A stretch of 64,000 bases of DNA from Escherichia phage TH09. The stretch lies in the sequence record MT446387.1; one strand, written 5' to 3'. This document shows positions 898-63,038 of this stretch, one piece after another (position 1 is the stretch's first letter; each line of letters starts with the position of its first letter). The notes beneath the pieces are model-generated. The model searched no databases. It was not told the DNA's origin and worked only from the letters and a program-made list of their open reading frames with translations. Position numbers and translations under genes: made by a program.

Positions 898-2994
898 ATG
901 ATGGAACTTATTACAGAATTATTTGACGAAGATACTACTCTTCCGATTACAAACTTAAATCCAAAGAAGAAAATACCGCAAATTTTTTCAGTTCACGTTG
1001 ATGATGCAATTGAACAGCCAGGCTTTCGTTTATGCACCTATACATCTGGAGGTGATACTAATCGCGATTTAAAGATGGGCGATAAAATGATGCATATTGT
1101 TCCTTTTACATTAACTGCTAAAGGTTCAATTGCTAAATTAAAAGGTCTTGGTCCAAGCCCAATTAATTATATCAATTCAGTTTTTACTGTTGCAATGCAA
1201 ACTATGCGTCAGTATAAAATTGATGCCTGTATGCTCCGTATTCTTAAGTCTAAAACCGCTGGTCAAGCTCGACAAATTCAAGTTATTGCTGATAGACTTA
1301 TCCGTAGTCGTTCAGGTGGTAGATACGTCCTTCTTAAGGAACTCTGGGATTACGATAAAAAGTATGCATATATTCTTATACATCGCAAAAATGTATCACT
1401 AGAAGACATTCCAGGAGTTCCGGAAATTAGTACCGAGCTCTTTACTAAAGTTGAATCAAAGGTCGGTGATGTTTATATCAATAAAGATACTGGAGCTCAA
1501 GTAACTAAAAATGAGGCAATTGCTGCATCTATTGCGCAAGAAAACGATAAACGTTCTGACCAAGCTGTAATCGTTAAAGTTAAAATTTCCCGTAGAGCAA
1601 TTGCACAAAGTCAATCATTAGAATCTTCTAGATTTGAAAGTGAATTATTCCAAAAGTATGAATCTACCGCAGCTAATTTCAATAAACCTGCTACGGCTCC
1701 TTTAATTCCCGAAGCAGAAGAAATGAAGCTTGGAATTAATTCATTAGCTTCTAAAACTAAAGCAGCAAAAATCATTGCCGAAGGAACTGCAGATGAACTT
1801 CATTATGACTATAAATTCTTTTCAAAAAGTGAGGTTAATGAAGTTTCTGAAAAAATTAAAGATGTAATTCTTAATGCGATTAAAAATGAACCAACTACTT
1901 CAATAAAATGTTTAGAGAAATACGCAGCAGCTGTAAATCAATTCTTTGAAGATTATAAAGATAAATGGCTTGCTAATCATAATAAAAATCGTAAAGGACA
2001 ACCAGATGAAGTCTGGGAAGAAATAACTAAAAATTCCTGGAACGCAGCAAAAACTAAATTCCTCAAACGAATGATTTACAGTTTTTCTGGAATTGGTGCT
2101 GGTCCAATGATTGATATTACTATTGCCCGCGATGGTTCTAAATATACTCCATCACAAAAGCGTGGCATTAGAGAATATTGCGGTTCAGGATATACTGACA
2201 TCAATAATCTTCTTTTAGGTCGTTACAATCCAGAACGATATGATGTAATGAGTGAAAAAGAAATTGAATCTGCTATAAATAACTTAGATTCAGCTTTTGA
2301 AAATGGTGACCGCATACCGGAAGGCATCACAGTTTATCGTGCTCAAAGTATGACTGCTCCTATATACGAAGCACTAGTTAAAAATAAAGTGTTCTATTTC
2401 AGAAATTTTGTATCTACTTCTTTAACTCCTATCATTTTTGGACGTTTTGGAATTACACATGCTGGTATTGGTCTTTTAGAACCAGAAGCTCGTAATGAAT
2501 TGACAGTTGATAAAAATGAAGAAGGAATAACTATTAATCCAAACGAAATAAGAGCGTATAAAGAAAATCCTGAATACGTTAAAGTTCAAATAGGATGGGC
2601 AATTGATGGAGCTCATAAAGTTAATGTTGTATATCCAGGAAGTCTCGGAATAGCAACAGAAGCTGAAGTTATTCTACCGCGCGGATTGATGGTCAAAGTT
2701 AATAAAATAACTGATGCTTCTAATAATGACGGAACCACGTCTAATAATACAAAACTCATTCAAGCTGAAGTTATGACCACGGAAGAGCTCACCGAATCGG
2801 TAATCTATGATGGAGACCATTTAATGGAAACCGGCGAAGTAGTTGCAATGACAGGTGATATTGAAATAGAAGACAGAGTTGACTTTGCATCATTTGTTTC
2901 ATCAAATGTTAAACAAAAAGTAGAATCATCTCTTGGAATTATTGCGTCTTGCATAGATATTACAAACATGCCTTACAAGTTCGTTCAAGGATAA
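898..2994 (+). CDS. alt: Alt ADP-ribosyltransferase, capsid-packaged and injected
   Basis: 698-aa ORF; N-terminus MMELITELFDEDTTLPITNL and overall sequence match recalled T4 Alt; ART-like motifs (FYFRNFVSTSL, EAEVILPRG); TATAAATA late promoter 20 nt upstream. Confidence 0.9.
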   Translation: MMELITELFDEDTTLPITNLNPKKKIPQIFSVHVDDAIEQPGFRLCTYTSGGDTNRDLKMGDKMMHIVPFTLTAKGSIAKLKGLGPSPINYINSVFTVAMQTMRQYKIDACMLRILKSKTAGQARQIQVIADRLIRSRSGGRYVLLKELWDYDKKYAYILIHRKNVSLEDIPGVPEISTELFTKVESKVGDVYINKDTGAQVTKNEAIAASIAQENDKRSDQAVIVKVKISRRAIAQSQSLESSRFESELFQKYESTAANFNKPATAPLIPEAEEMKLGINSLASKTKAAKIIAEGTADELHYDYKFFSKSEVNEVSEKIKDVILNAIKNEPTTSIKCLEKYAAAVNQFFEDYKDKWLANHNKNRKGQPDEVWEEITKNSWNAAKTKFLKRMIYSFSGIGAGPMIDITIARDGSKYTPSQKRGIREYCGSGYTDINNLLLGRYNPERYDVMSEKEIESAINNLDSAFENGDRIPEGITVYRAQSMTAPIYEALVKNKVFYFRNFVSTSLTPIIFGRFGITHAGIGLLEPEARNELTVDKNEEGITINPNEIRAYKENPEYVKVQIGWAIDGAHKVNVVYPGSLGIATEAEVILPRGLMVKVNKITDASNNDGTTSNNTKLIQAEVMTTEELTESVIYDGDHLMETGEVVAMTGDIEIEDRVDFASFVSSNVKQKVESSLGIIASCIDITNMPYKFVQG

Positions 2995-2997
2995 ATC

Positions 2998-5055
2998 ATG
3001 GAACTTATTACAGAATTATTTGACGGCGCTTCGGCGCCGGTTGTTAACTTAAATCCTAAGCATAAAATACCGCAAATTTTTGCTATTCAAGCCGGCGAAG
3101 AAAGTGTGCTTCCTGGATTTAGATTTTGTACATACACCTCTGGCGGTGATACAAATAAAAACGTTAAGCCAGGCGATAAAATGATGCATATCGTAATGAT
3201 AGGTGTCAATGAGAAACTATCGCTCGTTAAACTTAAAAACTTGGGTGGAAATCCAATTGGTGTCATTAATGCGGTTTTTGATACTGCTCTTCAAACAATG
3301 AAACAGTATAAAATTGATGCATGCTTATTCCGCGTACTAAAGAGTAAAACAAATGGCGCAGCTCGTCAAATGCAAGTTATTGCTGACCGTTTAGTACGTA
3401 CTAAAGGAGCAGGTCGATATGCTCTTTTAAAGGAAATCTGGGATTACGATAAAAAGTATGCATATATTATGGTTTACCGTAAAAATGCCAATTTAGAAGA
3501 CATTCCAGGTGTACCTCCTATTTCAACTGAGTTATTCACAAAAGTTGAATCAAAGGTTGGTGATGTTTATGTAGACGTTAAAACAGGTAATGCTGTTCCT
3601 AAAGCTGTTGCTGTTGCTGCTTCTATTGCCTTAGAAAATGATAAGCGCACGGATCAAGCTGTTATTCAGAAAACTAAAATTAGTCGTCGATTAGCAGCAC
3701 AAGCTCAATATTCTACTGTTGATGCTTCACTTCAGGGTGATAGCTTCGCTGCTAAGAAATATCAAGAGTTTGAATCTAAAGTTCCGGTATATAAAGCAGA
3801 AGGACCAATGAACTCCGGGGTTATCCAGATTGGTTCAAACTTTAACAAAGGAGCTATCGGTGGTATGAGAAGTGCTTCTCGTTTTAAATCTAATGATTAT
3901 GAACTAGAAAGTTTCCGAAATCATATTGCATTAGCCCATGCGCGTTTACGTGATCCATCTATCAAGTTGCAGAGCGATATAACATATCAAGGTTCTCAAG
4001 AATATTTAAAGAATAAAGAATTCTTTGATTATAAAACTGATAAAATTTTAAGCGATCTTGCTGACATTAATATTTCTAATAGCTTTGATGTTATTAAGAA
4101 AATTATCAATGATTTAGTTAAAGGTTCTAAAGCTACACCAGATGAAAAGACAGCTATTATTCAATTTGTCATGAATGGCATTTATAAATTGATTAATGAA
4201 TCTGCCGCTCAGGCATATGAATACGCGAGCACCGAAGTAACTCCAAAAGGATTAACTCAAGCTGAATCTGATGTAATTGAAGATTATTGTGCAGATTCAT
4301 ATGTTGAAATGAACTCGTTCCTTTTGGGTAAACCAGATTCTACCCGCGAAGAATATATGGAACGAGCTATTAAACATATTGAGACGCTTGATTCTGCATT
4401 CGCTAAAGGTTCAGTTCTTCCTCCAGGAACTACACTTTACCGTGGACAAGAAGTTACATTTAAAACTTTGCGTCATAACATTGAAAACAAAATGTTCTAT
4501 TTCAAGAACTTCGTATCCACATCGCTTAAACCAAATATCTTCGGTGAGCATGGTAAAAACTATATGGCCTTAGATGATTCCGGCGCAGTATTTTCTGGTG
4601 AAGGAGAAGGTTCCGTTGATGCAGAAGATTTGATGCATATGGGTAGTCATTCTACATATGCTAGTGAAGATGCCGAAACTAGCGTGGGTATGGTAATTAA
4701 AGGAGCTGAGCGAATCAAAGTTATCGTTCCAGGTCATTTATCAGGATTTCCATCAGAAGCTGAAGTTATTCTACCACGTGGAATTTTACTGAAGATTAAT
4801 AAAGTAAGTACGTACTTTATGAAAGAAACTGCTTATAACAAGTATCTAATCGAAGGTACAATCGTTCCTCCTTCTGAACAATTAGAGGAATCAGTATATG
4901 ATGGCGACCATTTGATGGAAACTGGTGAAGTTCGTCCAATGACTGGATTTAATCAATTCCTTGTCGAAGAATCAAAAGAAGAGGAAAACGAAGTTTCTCA
5001 AATCTTAGCTTCTTTGGTTAACATTAACGGAATGTCTAAAAAGTTCAAAATGTAG
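2998..5055 (+). CDS. Alt-like ADP-ribosyltransferase paralog
   Basis: 685-aa ORF starting 4 nt after the alt stop. N-terminal ~220 aa and C-terminal ART region (FYFKNFVSTSL, SEAEVILPRG, YDGDHLMETGEV) are clearly paralogous to the upstream Alt; the middle region is divergent. Confidence 0.8.
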   Translation: MELITELFDGASAPVVNLNPKHKIPQIFAIQAGEESVLPGFRFCTYTSGGDTNKNVKPGDKMMHIVMIGVNEKLSLVKLKNLGGNPIGVINAVFDTALQTMKQYKIDACLFRVLKSKTNGAARQMQVIADRLVRTKGAGRYALLKEIWDYDKKYAYIMVYRKNANLEDIPGVPPISTELFTKVESKVGDVYVDVKTGNAVPKAVAVAASIALENDKRTDQAVIQKTKISRRLAAQAQYSTVDASLQGDSFAAKKYQEFESKVPVYKAEGPMNSGVIQIGSNFNKGAIGGMRSASRFKSNDYELESFRNHIALAHARLRDPSIKLQSDITYQGSQEYLKNKEFFDYKTDKILSDLADINISNSFDVIKKIINDLVKGSKATPDEKTAIIQFVMNGIYKLINESAAQAYEYASTEVTPKGLTQAESDVIEDYCADSYVEMNSFLLGKPDSTREEYMERAIKHIETLDSAFAKGSVLPPGTTLYRGQEVTFKTLRHNIENKMFYFKNFVSTSLKPNIFGEHGKNYMALDDSGAVFSGEGEGSVDAEDLMHMGSHSTYASEDAETSVGMVIKGAERIKVIVPGHLSGFPSEAEVILPRGILLKINKVSTYFMKETAYNKYLIEGTIVPPSEQLEESVYDGDHLMETGEVRPMTGFNQFLVEESKEEENEVSQILASLVNINGMSKKFKM

Positions 5056-10925: not shown

Positions 10926-11674
10926 TATTGTTTATCCTTCTCAATCAGTTTTAATACGAATCCGCGCTCAGCAGGAATCATTTTCATTATTGAATTTAAG
11001 CTATAATTACTTTTTACGAGCGTGTGATTGATTTGATAAAAAGTAAATATTTCATCTGGGTTAACTAATAGCTTAAACACATCTACTATATCAGTGTATT
11101 TTTTTACATACTTATTACAGCATGACATATGCAATGTTAAATTAATAGGATTCATTGCATCGAGAATTTTTTCTAATGTTTCTATCTCGATGGCATCAAC
11201 AAGTTCTATTTGACTTGATTCGCTAATTTCATTCCAATCATACCACATTTCATCTACTTGAACAGAATGAATATTTTCAGTAATCATCTTTGCTTTATTT
11301 TCATAAAACTCAGAAGGAAACTTTAATTTAATTTTAACATTAGCTACATCAAAAACAGGTTCCTTTAATTCTTTTTGATATATTTCAAATGGAACTGTCT
11401 TTTCTTTTTTACATTTTGGACATACAAATGTGACCGGTACTTTAGTTTTACCTATTGACCCTACAAATACCTGCAAAAATATAAATGGTTGCCAAGTCTT
11501 CGGATAGTCTCCAAAATAATCAGCAATTAAATCAGCAATTATTTCTTTTTGTTCTTGTGGTGACCGATGTTCTATATCGTTTCGAACTAACAAAAAATCT
11601 CGATAATCTTCTACCGTAAATGGTTTAAAACGATGAACACCATCTGGTAATTTACAACGAATAATGTTTGCCAT
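10925..11674 (-). CDS. 51: baseplate hub assembly protein gp51
   Basis: 249-aa ORF, T4 gp51 length and position; TATAAATA late promoter upstream on the minus strand. Confidence 0.8.
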
Positions 11675-11691
11675 AGATGCTCCTTTTATTC

Positions 11692-11703
11692 TATTTATAA
11701 ATA
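11692..11703. promoter_or_regulatory. overlapping divergent late promoters (TATTTATAAATA) for genes 51 and 26
   Basis: TATAAATA on the minus strand at 11692..11699 and on the plus strand at 11696..11703. Confidence 0.65.
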
Positions 11704-11724
11704 TGATAAATAAAGGAGCTAAAT

Positions 11725-12351
11725 ATGTATGAATACAAATTTGATGTGAGAGTTGGTTCTAAAATAATCAACTGTCGCGCATTTACTCTTAAAGAATATC
11801 TAGAACTTATTACTGCTAAAAAGAACGGTTCAGTAGAAGAGATCGTTAAAAAGCTAATCAAAGAATGCACAAATGCAAAAGATTTAAACCGCCAAGAATC
11901 AGAACTACTATTGATTCATTTATGGGCACATTCTCTTGGAGAAGTTAATCACGAAAACTCCTGGAAGTGCACCTGTGGAACTGAAATACCAACCCATATA
12001 AATCTATTACATACACAAATAGATGCACCAGAAGACCTCTGGTATACACTGGGTGACATTAAAATTAAATTCCATTACCCTAAAATTTTTGATGATAAAA
12101 ATATAGCCCACATGATAGTATCATGTATAGAAACGATTCATGCTAACGGGGAAAGCATTCCAGTTGAAGACTTAAATGAAAAAGAACTGGAAGATTTATA
12201 TTCTATCATCACAGAGTCAGATATTGTAGCTATAAAAGATATGCTTTTAAAGCCTACCGTTTATTTGGCTGTTCCAATTAAGTGTCCAGAGTGTGGAAAA
12301 ACTCACGCTCATGTAATAAGAGGACTCAAAGAATTCTTTGAGCTATTGTAA
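11725..12351 (+). CDS. 26: baseplate hub subunit gp26
   Basis: 208-aa ORF, T4 gp26 length; divergent from gene 51, with a late promoter upstream. Confidence 0.8.
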
Positions 12352-22194: not shown

Positions 22195-23004
22195 TTAGAA
22201 ACGAGATGCGACTTTCGCATATACACTTACAATATCTTCTGCACCTTGTGCAGATTTATCTTCTACAGCTTCAGTGACGAAATTCAGTCCGGCTGCTTCA
22301 GTATCAGGAGTATTTATACTCTCAGTAATAGTGCTTTCATCTTTATTAGATTTCTTCACCATTTCTACGATTGCACTCAATTTACTTGAGAATGCATCTG
22401 AATAATCCATACCTTCGACCAGAGCAGAGACTTTTTCTTTTTGAGACTCAGTCAGATCTTTAGTACTTTCGCTCAATGCCACTTCACGCTGCACATAATT
22501 GATATATGCGTCACGCTTATTGAGTTCTTCGAACAGACGAGCTGATTCTTCTTTATGTTCTTGCAGTTCTTCTTCCATTTCAGCTACAACATCAACTGAT
22601 TCTTCTGGAACAACAACGTTGTGTTCAACGAAGAGCTCTTTCAATCCACCAAGCATGGATTCAAACAGTTCGGCTTTGATGCCTTTATCTACTGCTAATT
22701 TATTTTCAGTGAGCCATTCTTTTGCAAGATGGTCAAGGAATTTAGAAGCTTGCTCAGCGATTTTCTTCTCAGCTTTTTCTTCTGCTTCTTCTTTATTTTT
22801 TTCTACTTCTTCTTCTGCTTTTTCAGCAATTTTAGCGATATGAGATTCAGCTAATTTAACGGCGTGCTGCTTGACGGTAGCTTCGAATACAGTGCCGAAA
22901 GTTTCTTTTGCTTCCGGAGAAATATTAACTGATTCGAAAATACTATCAAGAGCAACGGAAGCATCAATTTTCTGCGCTTCGGCAATCAGTTGTTCTTTAA
23001 GCAT
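22195..23004 (-). CDS. 22: prohead core scaffold protein gp22
   Basis: 269-aa acidic coiled-coil ORF, T4 gp22 length; late promoter upstream. Confidence 0.9.
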   Translation of the reverse strand: MLKEQLIAEAQKIDASVALDSIFESVNISPEAKETFGTVFEATVKQHAVKLAESHIAKIAEKAEEEVEKNKEEAEEKAEKKIAEQASKFLDHLAKEWLTENKLAVDKGIKAELFESMLGGLKELFVEHNVVVPEESVDVVAEMEEELQEHKEESARLFEELNKRDAYINYVQREVALSESTKDLTESQKEKVSALVEGMDYSDAFSSKLSAIVEMVKKSNKDESTITESINTPDTEAAGLNFVTEAVEDKSAQGAEDIVSVYAKVASRF

Positions 23005-23031: not shown

Positions 23032-23039
23032 TATTTATA
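23032..23039 (-). promoter_or_regulatory. late promoter TATAAATA (gene 22)
   Basis: TATTTATA on the plus strand, 28 nt upstream of the gene 22 start. Confidence 0.7.
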
Positions 23040-23673
23040 ACGCTTTTTTCATGGCCTCTGCGAGAGCCATATAGGCGTCATCGGCACTTGTATCGGCTTC
23101 CGCCGTCTGTGATTCGGTAATTTCCTTAGGAGTTACCCATGCATCTGGAGCACTTGGACCCCATACTGCATCAACACCTACAGTTAATTTGAATCCTTCG
23201 TTTACGATACGATAACCTTTATTTGTGTCAGTCAATGAACCTAATCCACGAGAAGAAACTCCTGGAATCCATCCGGCACGAATATTAGCTGCTAATTTAT
23301 CTCCAGGACCATGGTCACCTTCAATAACACGAGCTCGTCCGTATACGTCATTTCCTTTCCACCACATATCTTCTATAATGATAGCGGCTTGCATCGGGTC
23401 AACATTAGCGCGTGGAGGATGATTTAATTCTCCGAGAGCTTGTTTAGTTAAAACTTGCTCATTAATATAGTCTTTTACCGCTTTTTCTAATATACGTTTT
23501 GGATAAAGACGTTTATTTCTATTGACGACTTCCGCTTGCATGAATATTCCTTCGATGTATAAACCAGGTTTTAAACCTAAGTCTTTTCCATCATGAGATT
23601 CAAGCATTGGTACGCCATCAATAATTTCGCCAGGTTGACCCCAAGTTTCAATTAGTAATTGGGGTTCATTCAT
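23035..23673 (-). CDS. 21: prohead core protease gp21
   Basis: 212-aa ORF, T4 gp21 length and position. Confidence 0.9.
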   Translation of the reverse strand: MNEPQLLIETWGQPGEIIDGVPMLESHDGKDLGLKPGLYIEGIFMQAEVVNRNKRLYPKRILEKAVKDYINEQVLTKQALGELNHPPRANVDPMQAAIIIEDMWWKGNDVYGRARVIEGDHGPGDKLAANIRAGWIPGVSSRGLGSLTDTNKGYRIVNEGFKLTVGVDAVWGPSAPDAWVTPKEITESQTAEADTSADDAYMALAEAMKKAL

Positions 23674-51895: not shown

Positions 51896-52592
<697 letters not shown>

Positions 52593-52604
52593 TTTCACAA
52601 AGTT

Positions 52605-52641
52605 GTTTACACGCTGATGAGGTAGTGATACTATTATCTCA
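52605..52641 (+). promoter_or_regulatory. early promoter with stem-loop enclosing the -10 (PeSL-like cassette)
   Basis: GTTTAC, 17 nt, gtgATACTAtt; inverted repeat gatgag/ctcatc spans the -10. Confidence 0.65.
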
Positions 52642-52664
52642 TCAAAATTAATTAGGAAAATAAA

Positions 52665-52922
52665 ATGAAAACTTTCAAAGAGTTTGCTACAAAAACTACT
52701 ATCACCGAATCTTCCCACGGTATGGAAGTAAAGCTTGGAATGGCTTTAGCTGAAGCTGAGCGTCTTTTCTCTCGTATTAAAGAACTTGCTGCTGCAGTCG
52801 ATCCTTCATCTTTTAAAGGAGACCAAACTAAAGTTAAAGCGCTTTTAGCATTATGCTCAGATGCAGGAGAAATTGCTAAAAATGGTTCTAAGATGAAGAA
52901 ACGATTAGAAGATTTAAAATAA
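52665..52922 (+). CDS. internal-protein-like protein with CTS-like N-terminus (85 aa)
   Basis: N-terminus MKTFKEFATKTTITE resembles the T4 capsid targeting sequence (MKTYQEFIAE); preceded by an early promoter/stem-loop cassette. Confidence 0.6.
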   Translation: MKTFKEFATKTTITESSHGMEVKLGMALAEAERLFSRIKELAAAVDPSSFKGDQTKVKALLALCSDAGEIAKNGSKMKKRLEDLK

Positions 52923-52934
52923 TTTCACAAAGTT

Positions 52935-52966
52935 GTTTACACAGGGTTTTAGTAGTGATACTATTA
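52935..52966 (+). promoter_or_regulatory. early promoter (PeSL-like), near-identical copy of the cassette at 52605
   Basis: The sequence aatttcacaaagttgtttacac ... agtgatactatta is repeated. Confidence 0.65.
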
Positions 52967-52998
52967 CTCTATCAAAACAAAACCAAATGGAAATCAAA

Positions 52999-53232
52999 AT
53001 GAAAACTTTCAAAGAGTTTATCGCTGAATCTTCTGATGTAAAAGTTGAGTTTATTTACACCGGCAAGAAAGATAAAATGGGTGAAATGCCTCATGGAGTT
53101 CTTCGTGATGCATTAGATAATTTCGGTCAACTCGCCGCAGAAGATTACGGTGATAAAATTGTTGTTACTGGTCCTGCTGCAGTTATTGAAAAATGGGCAG
53201 CAGAAAATAAATCAATTTTTCGTAAAAAATAA
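52999..53232 (+). CDS. internal-protein-like protein with CTS-like N-terminus (77 aa)
   Basis: Track ORF starts at a TTG inside the promoter; ATG at 52999 gives MKTFKEFIAESS..., same arrangement as the upstream gene. Confidence 0.55.
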   Translation: MKTFKEFIAESSDVKVEFIYTGKKDKMGEMPHGVLRDALDNFGQLAAEDYGDKIVVTGPAAVIEKWAAENKSIFRKK

Positions 53233-54753: not shown

Positions 54754-54826
54754 TGGGAATTAGCCAAGTTGGTAAGGCACTGGATTTTGATTCCAGGATG
54801 CAAAGGTTCGAGTCCTTTATTCCCAG
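54754..54826 (+). tRNA. tRNA-Gln (anticodon TTG)
   Basis: Hand-folded cloverleaf: acceptor tgggaat/attccca, anticodon loop ttTTGat, T-loop ttcgagt. Confidence 0.85.
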
Positions 54827-54827
54827 C

Positions 54828-54914
54828 GCGAGAATGGTCAAATTGGTAAAGGCACAGCACTTAAAATGCTGCGGAATGATTTCCTTGTGGGTTCGAGTCC
54901 CACTTCTCGCACCA
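54828..54914 (+). tRNA. tRNA-Leu (anticodon TAA), type II, CCA encoded
   Basis: Acceptor gcgagaa/ttctcgc, anticodon loop ctTAAaa, long variable arm, T-loop ttcgagt. Confidence 0.85.
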
Positions 54915-54919
54915 AATTT

Positions 54920-54993
<74 letters not shown>

Positions 54994-55003
54994 ATTTAAT
55001 TTA

Positions 55004-55077
55004 CTCCGTGTAGCTCAGTTTGGTAGAGCGCCTGATTTGGGATCAGGAGGTCCAAGGTTCAAATCCTTGTATGGAGA
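55004..55077 (+). tRNA. tRNA-Pro (anticodon TGG)
   Basis: Acceptor ctccgtg/tatggag (two G-U pairs), anticodon loop ttTGGga, T-loop ttcaaat. Confidence 0.8.
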
Positions 55078-55079
55078 CT

Positions 55080-55169
55080 GGAGGCGTGGCAGAGTGGTTT
55101 AATGCACCGGTCTTGAAAACCGGCAGTCGCTCCGGCGACTCATAGGTTCAAATCCTATCGCCTCCGCCA
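55080..55169 (+). tRNA. tRNA-Ser (anticodon TGA), type II, CCA encoded
   Basis: Acceptor ggaggcg/cgcctcc, anticodon loop ctTGAaa, long variable arm, T-loop ttcaaat. Confidence 0.85.
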
Positions 55170-55174
55170 GTTTT

Positions 55175-55250
55175 GCTGATTTAGCTCAGTAGGTAGAGCA
55201 ACTCACTTGTAATGAGAAGGTCGGCGGTTCGATTCCGTCAATCAGCACCA
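55175..55250 (+). tRNA. tRNA-Thr (anticodon TGT), CCA encoded
   Basis: Acceptor gctgatt/aatcagc, anticodon loop ctTGTaa, T-loop ttcgatt. Confidence 0.85.
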
Positions 55251-55251
55251 A

Positions 55252-55326
55252 GGCCCTGTAGCTGGAAGGTTCAAGCAAGCGACTCATAATCGCCAGATGG
55301 TGGTTCAATTCCACCCAGGGCCACCA
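55252..55326 (+). tRNA. tRNA with anticodon CAT, probably the AUA-reading tRNA-Ile of T-even phages (could be Met)
   Basis: Acceptor ggccctg/cagggcc, anticodon loop ctCATaa, T-loop ttcaatt. Confidence 0.75.
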
Positions 55327-55339
55327 AATTAAGAATTAA

Positions 55340-55426
55340 GGGGAGTTATCCCGTAGAGGTAGCGGTGTGGACTGTAAATCCATTGTCATTGCGACTCGGG
55401 TGGTTCGACTCCATCACTCCCCACCA
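55340..55426 (+). tRNA. tRNA-Tyr (anticodon GTA), type II, CCA encoded
   Basis: Acceptor ggggagt/actcccc, anticodon loop ctGTAaa, long variable arm; the D-arm fold is slightly atypical. Confidence 0.7.
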
Positions 55427-55430
55427 ATTT

Positions 55431-55505
55431 GGATGTGTAGCTCAATGGCAGAGCGATCGCCTGTTAAGCGATTGGTTATAGGTTCGAATCCTATCACGTC
55501 CGCCA
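55431..55505 (+). tRNA. tRNA-Asn (anticodon GTT), CCA encoded
   Basis: Acceptor ggatgtg/cacgtcc, anticodon stem atcgc/gcgat with loop ctGTTaa, T-loop ttcgaat. Confidence 0.8.
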
Positions 55506-55509
55506 AATA

Positions 55510-55585
55510 CGAGGCATAGCTCAGAAGGAAGAGCAAGGACCTTCTAAGTCCTGGGTCGTAGGTTCGATCCCTACTGCCTCGACCA
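55510..55585 (+). tRNA. tRNA-Arg (anticodon TCT), CCA encoded
   Basis: Acceptor cgaggca/tgcctcg, anticodon stem aggac/gtcct with loop ctTCTaa, T-loop ttcgatc. Confidence 0.85.
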
Positions 55586-55589
55586 AACA

Positions 55590-55930
55590 AGAAGCCGGGT
55601 CGCTACCGGTAAGTCGTCGGACTGATGTTCCCTGGGTAAGGACTGGCATTAACAAATCTTTACGATCGGTTAATGCCCCCTTACATCACAGCAGAAACGG
55701 CGCACCGAATTATCGATTCGAGGAAATATCTTTGCCGTAAGCCGAGTAGCGTTTTTGACGGAACGTTCGGATATGGTTGAGATATGGCCTTTTAAAATAT
55801 TAAGTAGCGTCAACTGCTTAATAACCGGGTTCGAATCCCGGCGTTTCGTACAAACACTTGCCTTAGCAGGTGGAACCCCGACAAGGTTGCCGCAAGGCTT
55901 AGCCCCGACCGAAAGGTTGGGGCTTTTTGG
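55590..55930 (+). ncRNA. structured non-coding RNA region directly after the tRNA cluster (one or two small stable RNAs; boundaries uncertain)
   Basis: About 340 nt without a plausible ORF, GC-richer than its surroundings; 8-bp hairpin gcattaac/gttaatgc near 55646..55677; tRNA-like T-arm ccggg-ttcgaat-cccgg at 55825..55841; ends in a GAAA-tetraloop terminator. The position corresponds to the small stable RNAs of T4. Confidence 0.5.
55902..55930 (+). terminator. hairpin (GAAA loop) plus T-run ending the small-RNA region
   Basis: gccccgacc-gaaa-ggttggggc followed by ttttt. Confidence 0.7.
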
Positions 55931-55938
55931 TATAAATA
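55931..55938 (+). promoter_or_regulatory. late promoter TATAAATA
   Basis: Exact motif 41 nt upstream of the ORF at 55979, right after the terminator. Confidence 0.6.
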
Positions 55939-55978
55939 TAGTAGTATATTAAAACCACGAATTAAAACAGGAAATAAG

Positions 55979-56452
55979 ATGAAATCATATGCTCAATTTT
56001 TAAATGAAGCGGTGTTAAATGAAGCATCTAGCACCGAAATTCAAGCTGTCGCAAAAGCTGCCATTGCCGCGGGTAAATATTCCTATAAAGATGCTTCCGA
56101 TGAATCACGATTCCAATTTGCTCGTGATATGAAAGCCGAAGGATTTACAGGGAATGCAGTTAGTATGGCTTGGAAAAGTTTAGTTGCTACTGGAGCTGCT
56201 TTTGCAAAGGCTTCAGGTAAACCTGCTCCTAAAGCAGATCCTAAAGTCGCACAAGAGAAAAATATTGTTAAAGGAATTATCTCCAAATATGAAGCTATCC
56301 TTAAAGAGCTTTTAGTAATTAAAACTGAAGGCCAAAAGCTAGCTCGTGCTTATAGTTTCAAAGATAACCCACATGTTCACTCTCTTGAATATGTTGAAGA
56401 CATCCAAAAAATTATTAAAGACCGCATTTGGTCTGCTAAACAAATCAAATAA
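55979..56452 (+). CDS. internal-protein-like protein with CTS-like N-terminus (157 aa)
   Basis: N-terminus MKSYAQFLNEAVLNE; TATAAATA 41 nt upstream; hairpin terminator downstream. Confidence 0.6.
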   Translation: MKSYAQFLNEAVLNEASSTEIQAVAKAAIAAGKYSYKDASDESRFQFARDMKAEGFTGNAVSMAWKSLVATGAAFAKASGKPAPKADPKVAQEKNIVKGIISKYEAILKELLVIKTEGQKLARAYSFKDNPHVHSLEYVEDIQKIIKDRIWSAKQIK

Positions 56453-56460
56453 CATTCTTA

Positions 56461-56489
56461 GCCCTAGCCGAAAGGTTGGGGCTTTTTAG
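56461..56489 (+). terminator. hairpin (GAAA loop) plus T-run, near copy of the 55902 terminator
   Basis: gccctagcc-gaaa-ggttggggc followed by ttttt. Confidence 0.65.
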
Positions 56490-56570
56490 TTTGAATCGCT
56501 CGGAGAATGCTGTTACATATAACAACGTGATAAATAATTAATAACCAATAAATTATTTCAAGGATTTTAA

Positions 56571-57134
56571 ATGAAAACCTACGCCGAATTTTTAACCGAA
56601 GCAGCAAAATTACCATCTGAAGCAGATCTTACTAAAGTATTCTTCCACTTGGACCCAAAAGACCGTGGCGATTTTCTTAAGTGGAAAGCTAAAGCTATTG
56701 AAATGTACAACATCGATAATAGTTCTTTTACAATGAGTCAAGAAAATAAATTCAATAAAGCATTTTTCAAAATTTCTAAGAAATTGGCATCTGGCGCTCA
56801 GGTTCCTAAATCTGCATTAGCTACTCCTGAACGCGCACCTGTTAAAATTTCTAAGAATATGTTCGACACTAAAAAATACGTTAATGCTTTGAATAAAGCT
56901 CTTGATGCATTGGATGATGCAAAGAAGGCAGCCCGTGATCTTCAAGACGTGTACACCGATTTTGATCGTAAAACTAAAGGTTCTATTTCAAATAGCGAAC
57001 GCAATAGTGTAAGTGTTTATTCTGATAGCCTTGACGTTCTTGGCGATGCGTATACTGAAATTAAAAATCGTATTAACACTGCATCTAAGCTAAAAGCTGC
57101 CGCAGAAGCTATAATAACTAAACTAGATAAATAA
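56571..57134 (+). CDS. internal-protein-like protein with CTS-like N-terminus (187 aa)
   Basis: N-terminus MKTYAEFLTEAAK; hairpin terminator downstream. Confidence 0.6.
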   Translation: MKTYAEFLTEAAKLPSEADLTKVFFHLDPKDRGDFLKWKAKAIEMYNIDNSSFTMSQENKFNKAFFKISKKLASGAQVPKSALATPERAPVKISKNMFDTKKYVNALNKALDALDDAKKAARDLQDVYTDFDRKTKGSISNSERNSVSVYSDSLDVLGDAYTEIKNRINTASKLKAAAEAIITKLDK

Positions 57135-57142
57135 TTTTAAAT

Positions 57143-57168
57143 CCCTATCTAAATGATAGGGCTTTTTG
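57143..57168 (+). terminator. hairpin plus T-run
   Basis: ccctatc-taaat-gataggg followed by ctttttgg. Confidence 0.65.
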
Positions 57169-57300
57169 GCATCTAGGCCTTTCTGGATCTCTCTAGGCAT
57201 CATTTAGTTTCTACCCTTTATAATATATTATCCTATCCTTTAATTGCCCCTTCCATCCCTAGAATTCCCTAAAACTTTTTAAAAAATTTTTCACAAAACT

Positions 57301-57330
57301 GTTTACATCCCTGTTCTTCCATGGTACTAT
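57301..57330 (+). promoter_or_regulatory. early-type promoter (GTTTAC, about 18 nt, TACTAT)
   Basis: Motif match upstream of the ORF at 57374. Confidence 0.5.
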
Positions 57331-61110: not shown

Positions 61111-62079
<969 letters not shown>

Positions 62080-62083
62080 AGTT

Positions 62084-62120
62084 GTTTACTTTCTCCTAGA
62101 ATTGTGATAGTATATTCACA
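62084..62120 (+). promoter_or_regulatory. early-type promoter with stem-loop (tgtga / tcaca) enclosing the -10 (denV)
   Basis: GTTTAC at 62084; -10 region gatagtatatt inside an inverted repeat. Confidence 0.55.
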
Positions 62121-62138
62121 GTTAATTGGAGGGATAAA

Positions 62139-62555
62139 ATGACTCGTATTAATTTGACTTTAGTATCTGAACTTGCTGATCAACATTTAATCGCAGAATA
62201 CCGTGAATTGCCGCGTGTTTTTGGTATAGTTCGTAAGCATGTGGCAAACGGTAAGCGCGTTAAAGATTTTAAAATATCTTCCGAGTTTATTTTAGGTTCT
62301 GGTCATGTTACGTTCTTTTACGATAAGTTAGAATTTTTGCGAAAGCGTCAATTAGACATTATAACGGAATGCTTAAAACGCGGGTTCAGTATAAAAGATA
62401 CTGAAGTTCCTGACATCAGCGATATTCCAGTAGAATGGAAAAATGATTATAATCCATGCAAATCAGCTATTAAATTGAGTCAACAACGACTTGATGAAAA
62501 AATTTTAATGAAACCACATTGGTATAAGTATTACGGTAAAAATATTTACATTTAA
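62139..62555 (+). CDS. denV: endonuclease V (pyrimidine dimer DNA glycosylase)
   Basis: 138-aa ORF matching recalled T4 endo V ([17 protein letters not shown]...). Confidence 0.9.
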
Positions 62556-62564
62556 AGGAAACAT

Positions 62565-63038
62565 ATGAAAACATATCAAGAATTTATCACTGAAGCAGCT
62601 ATTAATTCTCAAATTATTGCTGAATCTTTTACTGATCTTTTGAAATTTAAAAAAGGTCAAAAAATCACTGCTGTATTGGATGATGGTACAGAAGTTGAGA
62701 TGGATGTACAGGGATATAATTATGCAGTAGATGGAAAATTGTATAATAAATCTCATGCTAAATTTGATTCATTTGACGACTTTGTTAATACAGTTGAAGA
62801 TGAAAAAACTCGTCGATCCATTGCAACTGGTGATGCTAAGGTTCTTATGGCACATGGTCATGAACGCATTCGCGCTAAACAGAATAAAATGGGCGAAGAT
62901 AATTTCGCATTAGTTGGTTATCAATCTGGTAAACAAACTTATGGTTATCAACGTACTGCTACCATGTATAATAAAAATGGTAAAATTGCCTTTGTGAATA
63001 GTAAAGGTTCTATTCAGTACGTTAAATCGTTCAAATAA
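62565..63038 (+). CDS. internal-protein-like protein with CTS-like N-terminus (157 aa)
   Basis: N-terminus MKTYQEFITEAAINS is almost the canonical T4 capsid targeting sequence. Confidence 0.6.
   Translation: MKTYQEFITEAAINSQIIAESFTDLLKFKKGQKITAVLDDGTEVEMDVQGYNYAVDGKLYNKSHAKFDSFDDFVNTVEDEKTRRSIATGDAKVLMAHGHERIRAKQNKMGEDNFALVGYQSGKQTYGYQRTATMYNKNGKIAFVNSKGSIQYVKSFK

Follow-up and report, generated by a model that had tools for sequence, protein, structure and literature searches.

The internal proteins of bacteriophage T4 are the closest described counterparts of the two genes considered here, which lie in a 64,000-nucleotide stretch of DNA (hereafter, the window) from Escherichia phage TH09 (MT446387.1), a T4-like phage of the genus Tequatrovirus, and which we call ORF1 and ORF2 (ORF, open reading frame; coordinates in Table 1). 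T4 IPI* (Ip1) is a small, basic protein that is packaged in the head, processed by the protease gp21 and injected, and it is now clear that Ip1, Ip2 and Ip3 are inhibitors of GmrSD type IV restriction enzymes, each of a different one (Silas et al. 2025, PMC12373910), IPIII being required on ECOR17 (Srikant et al. 2022). The former work also tested ip4-10, with no confirmed new pair, and expects the products of "the two Ip loci" to act on variants of one defense family. Regarding the N-terminal capsid targeting sequence (CTS), a review of Black's work (PMC9026906) reports that the first 10 residues of IPIII are enough for head loading, and that mutagenesis of this segment assigned positions 4 and 7 to targeting and positions 8 and 10 to gp21 processing; IPI is cut at a later site (ITE19), which yields the 76-residue IPI* (PMC3012670). 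As relayed by citing papers (PMC2839356, PMC12373910), Repoila et al. 1994 described CTS-bearing internal proteins that vary among T-even phages, at least 10 alternative ones have been reported for T-even relatives, Comeau et al. 2007 counted more than 30 Ip variants (as cited by Arbiol et al. 2010, PMC2839356), and two Ip loci are distinguished, namely ipI (between 57B and the tRNA genes) and ipII/ipIII (between e and denV).

A preliminary description of the window had noticed that ORF1 and ORF2 share an N-terminal signature and are placed between the tRNA cluster and a block of ORFs of unknown function, both of which hold: the two frames are present with the same kind of start, the tRNA/rnaC cluster lies to the left and e.8 to e.2 lie to the right. 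Taking all of the evidence together, we consider it probable that ORF1 and ORF2 encode T4-type internal head proteins, which would be packaged, cleaved and injected, possibly with an anti-defense role, and whose genes would be exchanged as cassettes at terminator sequences.

The N-terminus carries most of this assignment. The first eleven residues are MKSYAQFLNEA in ORF1 and MKTYAEFLTEA in ORF2, compared with MKTYQEFIAEA in both T4 IPII and IPIII, and Y4, F7, L8 and E10 followed by Ala (hence also the targeting residues at positions 4 and 7) are found in ORF1 and ORF2 alike, just as the 10-residue CTS of IPII and IPIII has Y4, F7, I/L8, E10 and Ala at P1'. The propeptides would read MKSYAQFLNE/AVLNE/A in ORF1 and MKTYAEFLTE/AA in ORF2 (slashes marking candidate gp21 sites), the putative sites being L8-N-E10/A and L13-N-E15/A in the former and L8-T-E10/A in the latter; ORF1 thus has L-x-E twice, the second time up to E15, and shares with IPI a propeptide with more than one L/I-x-E site. 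When the 560 Met-starts of the window that open frames of 40 aa or more were scanned, a strict pattern (^MK[ST][YF].[EQ]F[ILV].E) matched four of them, and a looser one (^MK.[YF]..F) matched exactly five genes, those starting at 52665, 52999, 55979, 56571 and 62565. Since the motif is limited to these five ip-type genes, it is specific and not a by-product of AT-rich composition. The preliminary description had set five such proteins against the three of T4; the count stands, and the surprise is weak, because numerous alternative internal proteins have been on record for T-even relatives for a long time. Three of the five (the Ip5-type, phrog_8111 and Ip4-type genes, which are of the polymorphic Ip kind) are already annotated as internal proteins.

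The ORF1-family homologues that we compared have propeptides of 9 to 15 residues, and a cut at the last [LIVMF]xE leaves the same mature start, (A/Q)S(S)SDV, in all of them. Given that ip-type genes are alike at their 5' ends in DNA, recombination could spread the motif, and one could picture ORF1 and ORF2 as late, cytoplasmic, unpackaged proteins whose CTS-like start is a conserved module, made up of the ribosome site and the first codons of the gene, that travels with recombining cassettes; the low specificity of the virion proteome described below would fit this as well. We find this quite improbable. The core [YF]xEFLxE is retained in homologues with bodies only 24-55% identical (starting, for instance, with MLQYNEFLKE, MITFNEFLNE or MKFKEFLAE), so that the motif is kept as protein, with many synonymous or conservative changes, and the DNA upstream of those homologues is not conserved. 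Additionally, ten CTS residues load foreign proteins in T4 (PMC9026906), and a late tagged protein amid gp22 cores is therefore expected to be loaded.

The predicted mature proteins (about 15.5 kDa, pI 9.6 for ORF1; about 19.7 kDa, pI 9.5 for ORF2; pI, isoelectric point) have masses of 15-20 kDa and a basic pI, within the range of T4 IPI, IPII and IPIII, and ORF2 (187 aa, mature pI 9.5) is particularly close to IPIII (193 aa, pI 9.65). Both are thus small and basic, as well as dispensable and variably present among close relatives, in common with the non-essential IPII and IPIII, which not all T-even phages carry. Nearly all of the database matches listed are labelled "hypothetical protein" or something similarly non-specific, and PHROG 2280, the family to which both ORFs belong, has no assigned function, which could be taken to mean that ORF1 and ORF2 are chance frames of an intergenic spacer, coding for nothing. 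We give this hardly any credence, and it is effectively refuted by the ratio of non-synonymous to synonymous substitution rates (dN/dS) together with the peptides found in Yersinia phage fD1: ORF1 differs from its RB51 counterpart by 21 synonymous and 2 non-synonymous changes (dN/dS 0.02), the ratio for ORF2 is 0.03 against RB14 and 0.07 against PhAPEC2, both ORFs match the PHROG over their full length, and homologues are known in five genera. ORF1 and ORF2 are real, strongly constrained, late-type genes.

The bodies behind the shared signature had been called unrelated, which is fair by eye and by BLASTP (no likeness of ORF1 to ORF2 beyond residues 1-11), but is contradicted by the common PHROG, by a shared architecture, by intermediates and by profile comparison. 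The match to PHROG 2280 covers profile positions 1-172 of 178 for ORF1 and 1-178 of 178 for ORF2, and a Klebsiella relative (P0011) and a distant ORF2 relative (P0027) are also full-length matches. AlphaFold models (predicted local distance difference test, pLDDT, 76.7 for ORF1 and 61.4 for ORF2) have the same layout, in which the predicted order is a short N-terminal helix, a domain of three helices, a disordered linker rich in K, P and A and a long C-terminal helical hairpin. Yersinia phage fHe-Yen9-01 has a tandem pair formed by an ORF2-like gene (gp154, starting with MLQYNEFLKE) and an ORF1-like gene (gp153), and gp154 aligns over its full length with ORF1 (E 7e-4) and with ORF2 (E 4e-4). 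Initial profile-profile tests with shallow alignments found the CTS alone to be alike, or gave weak signals; with gp154 and P0027 added, the two profiles are colinear over the whole length (probability 94-95%), and after removal of the tag the global score is 21.9, compared with 3.2 ± 1.9 (maximum 8.9) in column-shuffled controls, none of the 60 reaching 21.9. Since the body-only probabilities are modest (16-42%), our confidence that ORF1 and ORF2 would be distant paralogues of one family is moderate.

Two of these relatives deserve a separate description. In fHe-Yen9-01 (a Tegunavirus; 2422-3537 of its sequence) the order is ORF2-like, then ORF1-like, the reverse of the window, with one terminator and TATAAATA located 5' of the first gene; a tandem pair behind a single promoter indicates that the pair is old and that co-transcription is possible. 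P0027 (metagenome contig SRR28624380, 1419-2526), which starts with MITFNEFLNE, is the most distant ORF2 relative (31% identity), and the next gene has ART-PolyVal and DUF3990 domains and encodes a putative ADP-ribosyltransferase. T4 packages an ADP-ribosyltransferase (Alt).

The family spans from Tequatrovirus to Tegunavirus and Jiaodavirus. An exhaustive HMMER search with ORF2 returned only five proteins, of which one is a genuine distant relative, which indicates a small family limited to phages. Pfam and NCBIfam have no family or model for ORF1 or ORF2, and the weak Pfam matches (cytochrome b562, ALIX and others) were all below the cut-off and were dismissed. A Foldseek search of the PDB with ORF1 gave nothing at E < 1, and BFVD returned the family itself and fHe-Yen9-01 gp154 only, with no functional lead. 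By neither sequence nor fold search were ORF1 and ORF2 found to be like IPI*, IPII or IPIII. No body similarity to IPIII (phrog_5341) or IPII (phrog_7857) was found, and whereas IPI* is formed by two beta-sheets flanked by helices (PMC3012670), the models predict all-helical proteins for ORF1 and ORF2, with two domains and a flexible linker.

Regarding expression, the late promoter that the preliminary description had proposed for ORF1 is an exact copy of TATAAATA, a sequence that occurs 24 times in the window, compared with 9.7 ± 3.2 times in shuffles, and that is found exactly at the same position in RB51, in Klebsiella phage phiKp_22 and in fHe-Yen9-01 (gp154). Upstream of ORF2 an exact TATAAATA was not found, just the putative late promoter GATAAATA; a MotA-type middle promoter was considered there by eye, and its spacing does not fit. 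Across the family, TATAAATA or NATAAATA is present at -37 to -48 in 10 of 11 genes from five genera, the eleventh gene being located directly 3' of its paralogue. The strong terminators claimed after both ORFs are likewise there (-18.3 and -10.4 kcal/mol), and for none of the three hairpins of the locus did any of 200 shuffles fold equally well. The terminators of rnaC and of ORF1 are the two copies of an imperfect direct repeat of about 34 bp that flanks ORF1, and the 3' half and T-run of the ORF2 terminator (GGGCTTTTTGG) match the other two, the 3' half common to all three being GGGCTTTTT.

This arrangement differs from that of the classic ip genes. T4 ipI, ipII and ipIII, as well as the window genes at 52665 and 52999 (upstream regions 52570-52664 and 52905-52998 inspected), have a GTTTACA early promoter whose -35 and -10 elements are separated by an inverted repeat or stem-loop, in place of which the PHROG 2280 genes have a GC-rich terminator followed by TATAAATA or NATAAATA. 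CTS-bearing genes therefore come in two distinct types of regulatory cassette. A late promoter and a tag on one and the same protein are what is expected for cargo of the next infection.

The comparison of genomes allowed us to follow the two genes as units. In T4 the site is empty, with the e.8 promoter region coming straight after the rnaC terminator, and RB7 lacks both genes as well; RB51 has ORF1 only, between two copies of the terminator sequence (its annotation describes the homologue as "flanked by 34 bp imperfect direct repeat"); RB14 and RB69 have ORF2 only, beginning directly after the terminator T-run; and both are present in the window and in Mosigvirus PhAPEC2. There is a single terminator at the empty T4 site and, at occupied sites, one more for each gene, each unit being made of one promoter-like element, a CTS-bearing ORF and one terminator. 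The existence of these four states indicates that ORF1 and ORF2 behave as independent cassettes, as had been proposed. A further suggestion, that they could be strain-specific insertions, did not survive the synteny comparison: ORF1 homologues were found in 511 phage records (95-100% identity in Tequatrovirus, about 76% in Mosigvirus) and ORF2 homologues in 164, nearly all at least 95% identical, and among 60 evenly spaced records of the 695 matching the T4 empty-site sequence, about 6 are empty, about 25 have ORF1 only and about 13 have both, which makes the empty T4 state a minority.

The 1.3-kb region with ORF1 and ORF2 has counterparts of 96-97% identity in many Tequatrovirus genomes of Escherichia, Shigella and Yersinia phages. 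In relation to Mosigvirus, the DNA identity of the window is 95-96% for ORF2, compared with 74% for 57B, 79% for e.6, 66-70% for e.5 and 76% for ORF1, so that ORF2, being far closer than its neighbors, points to a recent exchange of its cassette between genera. Own promoter and terminator, flanking repeat, and empty as well as occupied sites are all found here, and we infer from these sequences that the ORF1 and ORF2 cassettes may move, be lost and pass from one phage genus to another through recombination at the terminator sequence that they have in common. In this respect they resemble the polymorphic Ip4-Ip10 and further internal proteins, alternative CTS-bearing genes swapped as cassettes between conserved flanks. 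They also resemble the PeSL cassettes of RB49 and phi1 (Arbiol et al. 2010, PMC2839356) and the lambdoid "morons", in which a single accessory gene has its own promoter and terminator and repeated regulatory stem-loops flank the gene and serve as recombination sites, leading to insertion, deletion and horizontal transfer. The promoters of ORF1 and ORF2 are, however, of the late gp55 type, those of PeSL being sigma-70 early promoters, and the repeat, of about 34 bp instead of the approximately 100 bp of PeSL, is an intrinsic terminator with a GNRA loop.

Some public assemblies contain chimeric ORFs (P0014, P0024 and P0025) in which part of ORF1 or ORF2 is joined to neighboring genes (a trna.3-like N-terminus with the C-terminus of ORF1, or the mid-part of ORF2 with the C-terminus of nudE), and their sequences suggest gene-fusing deletions in this region. 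In the reference sequence of RB69 (11429-11991), the ORF2 homologue lacks 1 nt that the window has and is thereby broken into two frames, RB69ORF149c and RB69ORF148c; this reflects either a pseudogene or an error in sequencing.

The mechanism that we propose is the following. Late in infection, the CTS of about 10 residues would steer the ORF1 or ORF2 product into the core of gp22 scaffold inside the prohead, where gp21 would cleave after L-x-E (at E10 and, in ORF1, probably at E15 too); the basic mature protein (pI about 9.5) would remain amid the packed DNA and be ejected with it into the next host, where its most likely job, by analogy with Ip1-3, would be to disarm a first-response host defense. 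Packaging we consider likely, and packaging and cleavage are suggested by the sequence, by the presence of the machinery (gp23 is encoded in the window too, alongside gp21 and gp22) and by one proteome, since g140 of fD1 (also known as phiD1), 97.5% identical to ORF1, was scored as particle-associated by LC-MS/MS (liquid chromatography coupled to tandem mass spectrometry) of purified Yersinia phage virions (PMC8309999 Table S3). A literature search for a virion proteome covering ORF2 found none, the fPS-65 paper being without one. Injection and anti-defense activity would follow by analogy with the T4 proteins, and the latter is the least secure step of the mechanism.

Several observations weigh against this proposal. 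The specificity of the fD1 proteome is low, because 113-137 of the 277 gene products were scored as particle-associated (including DenV, lysozyme and NudE); the virion support for ORF1 thus comes from one low-specificity proteome, and packaging of ORF2 would be predicted from its sequence. ORF1 and ORF2 lie outside the two recognised Ip loci (at rnaC/e.8, unlike IPIII and IPII at e/denV) and have no early promoter with AT-rich stem-loop upstream, and the ORF2 promoter, with 7 of 8 bases, is short of the consensus. No fold or family match gives a hint of function. Finally, the N-terminal domain of ORF1 is 52-58% identical in Klebsiella phages (Jiaodavirus) and 55% identical in fHe-Yen9-01, and the within-clade dN/dS is very low, which is unlike a protein evolving rapidly in an arms race.

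These last features also bear on the main rival explanation, a head-internal, DNA-associated role with no anti-defense activity, in which proteins packaged through the CTS would serve the head itself, as basic, lysine-rich proteins that condense, neutralise or eject the genome. The mature proteins are basic and have a K/P/A-rich linker (GKPAPKADPKVAQEK; AKPKAAKK in P0011; KPEAPKAG...KPAKVEVPK in P0027), lysines of T4 internal proteins touch DNA phosphates (PMC3012670), and the family and its two-domain architecture are kept across five genera with a very low dN/dS, unlike the hypervariable Ips. We nevertheless judge a role confined to the head to be unlikely, as T4, RB7 and others have normal heads without both genes, all three T4 Ips, long suspected to be structural, proved to be specific GmrSD inhibitors (PMC12373910), and the presence/absence polymorphism and cross-genus transfer of ORF2 suit an accessory host-range function better.

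As a more tentative idea, the rnaC/e.8 junction may be a third, overlooked Ip locus of Tevenvirinae, with an old, late, two-domain family whose target would be a conserved host factor, or the phage's own injected DNA via the K/P-rich linker, rather than one GmrSD variant. The literature that we searched does not name this site as an Ip locus, Repoila et al. 1994 and Comeau et al. 2007 being represented there by the papers that cite them; a search for RB69ORF149c, RB32ORF132c and RB14ncORF136c found no paper naming them, and internal proteins are not discussed in Petrov 2010. The annotators of RB14 and RB51 named Ip4, Ip5 and IpI, but left the ORF1 and ORF2 homologues hypothetical.

A parallel to the proposed anti-defense function is offered by the Dar proteins of phage P1, which are not known to be related to ORF1 and ORF2 in sequence, size or loading mechanism. 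As outlined in PMC12810830, Dar proteins are head-internal and are delivered with the DNA to counter restriction.

The new elements here are the locus, the assignment to a family and the gap in annotation, the principle being already known; as both the packaging principle and cassette polymorphism were established before, the gain is incremental. ORF1 and ORF2 are present in most Tequatrovirus genomes sampled, at a third locus and exchanged between genera, and two more tag-bearing proteins would lengthen the list of candidates for orphan type IV restriction systems and would bear on host-range prediction for therapeutic T4-like phages. The assignment could also mend the annotation of hundreds of GenBank records and one PHROG now labelled as being of unknown function.

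Table 1. Features of the ORF1/ORF2 locus and related genes in the window (64,000 nucleotides, MT446387.1).
Feature	Position	Strand	Match, energy or basis
ORF1, 157 aa	55979..56452	+	phrog_2280, E 9e-61
ORF2, 187 aa	56571..57134	+	phrog_2280, E 1.4e-53
rnaC homologue (T4 species 1 RNA), left boundary of the locus	55713..55851	+	T4 rnaC annotation
rnaC terminator hairpin (stem 55901-55924, GAAA loop, T-run)	55897..55932	+	-20.3 kcal/mol
TATAAATA, T4 late-promoter consensus, 41 nt 5' of ORF1 start codon	55931..55938	+	
ORF1 terminator (stem 56460-56483), copy 2 of terminator repeat	56456..56491	+	-18.3 kcal/mol
GATAAATA, putative late promoter, 7/8 bases of consensus, 34 nt 5' of ORF2 start	56529..56536	+	
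ORF2 terminator (stem 57143-57161)	57139..57169	+	-10.4 kcal/mol
Early-type promoter (TTTACA-17-TACTAT with TG) of e.8 block, right boundary of the locus	57302..57330	+	
Ip5-type internal head protein, classic ipI locus	52665..52922	+	phrog_3499
Second CTS-bearing gene of ipI locus	52999..53232	+	phrog_8111, internal virion protein
Ip4-type internal protein, after denV	62565..63038	+	DUF7412
gp21 prohead protease, would remove CTS	23035..23673	-	Peptidase_S77
gp22 scaffold	22195-23004		

The gene order around the locus is 1, 57A, 57B, two ip-type genes, trna.4-.2-like ORFs, the tRNA cluster and rnaD/rnaC, followed by ORF1, ORF2, e.8 to e.2, nudE, e, denV and the Ip4-type gene. On the left, the stretch 55590-55930 is 93.6% identical to T4, and on the right the sequence around the e.8 promoter is common to T4, RB51 and RB69. 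In RB51 and RB14, the gene at the position of the Ip5-type gene (57B-ip-tRNA.4) is annotated as Ip5 and is likewise 258 bp long, and the one at the position of the Ip4-type gene is annotated as Ip4. In the second classic Ip locus (61585-63038), e is followed directly by denV and then by the Ip4-type gene, an arrangement unlike that of T4 (e, ipIII, ipII, denV) and found also in RB51.

The 3' part of the rnaC homologue (55758-55851) was called by ARAGORN as a 94-nt "tRNA-Lys (ttt)", with no tRNA reported by Rfam; because the stretch coincides with that part of rnaC, the call is probably a tRNA-like fold of an rnaC-type RNA and not a tRNA gene. The tRNA cluster of the window (54754-55585) has ten Rfam-supported tRNAs, including Tyr and Asn, compared with the eight annotated in T4, and is without the homing endonuclease segB, which interrupts the T4 cluster; its CAU "Met" tRNA is annotated as Ile in T4, RB14 and RB51.

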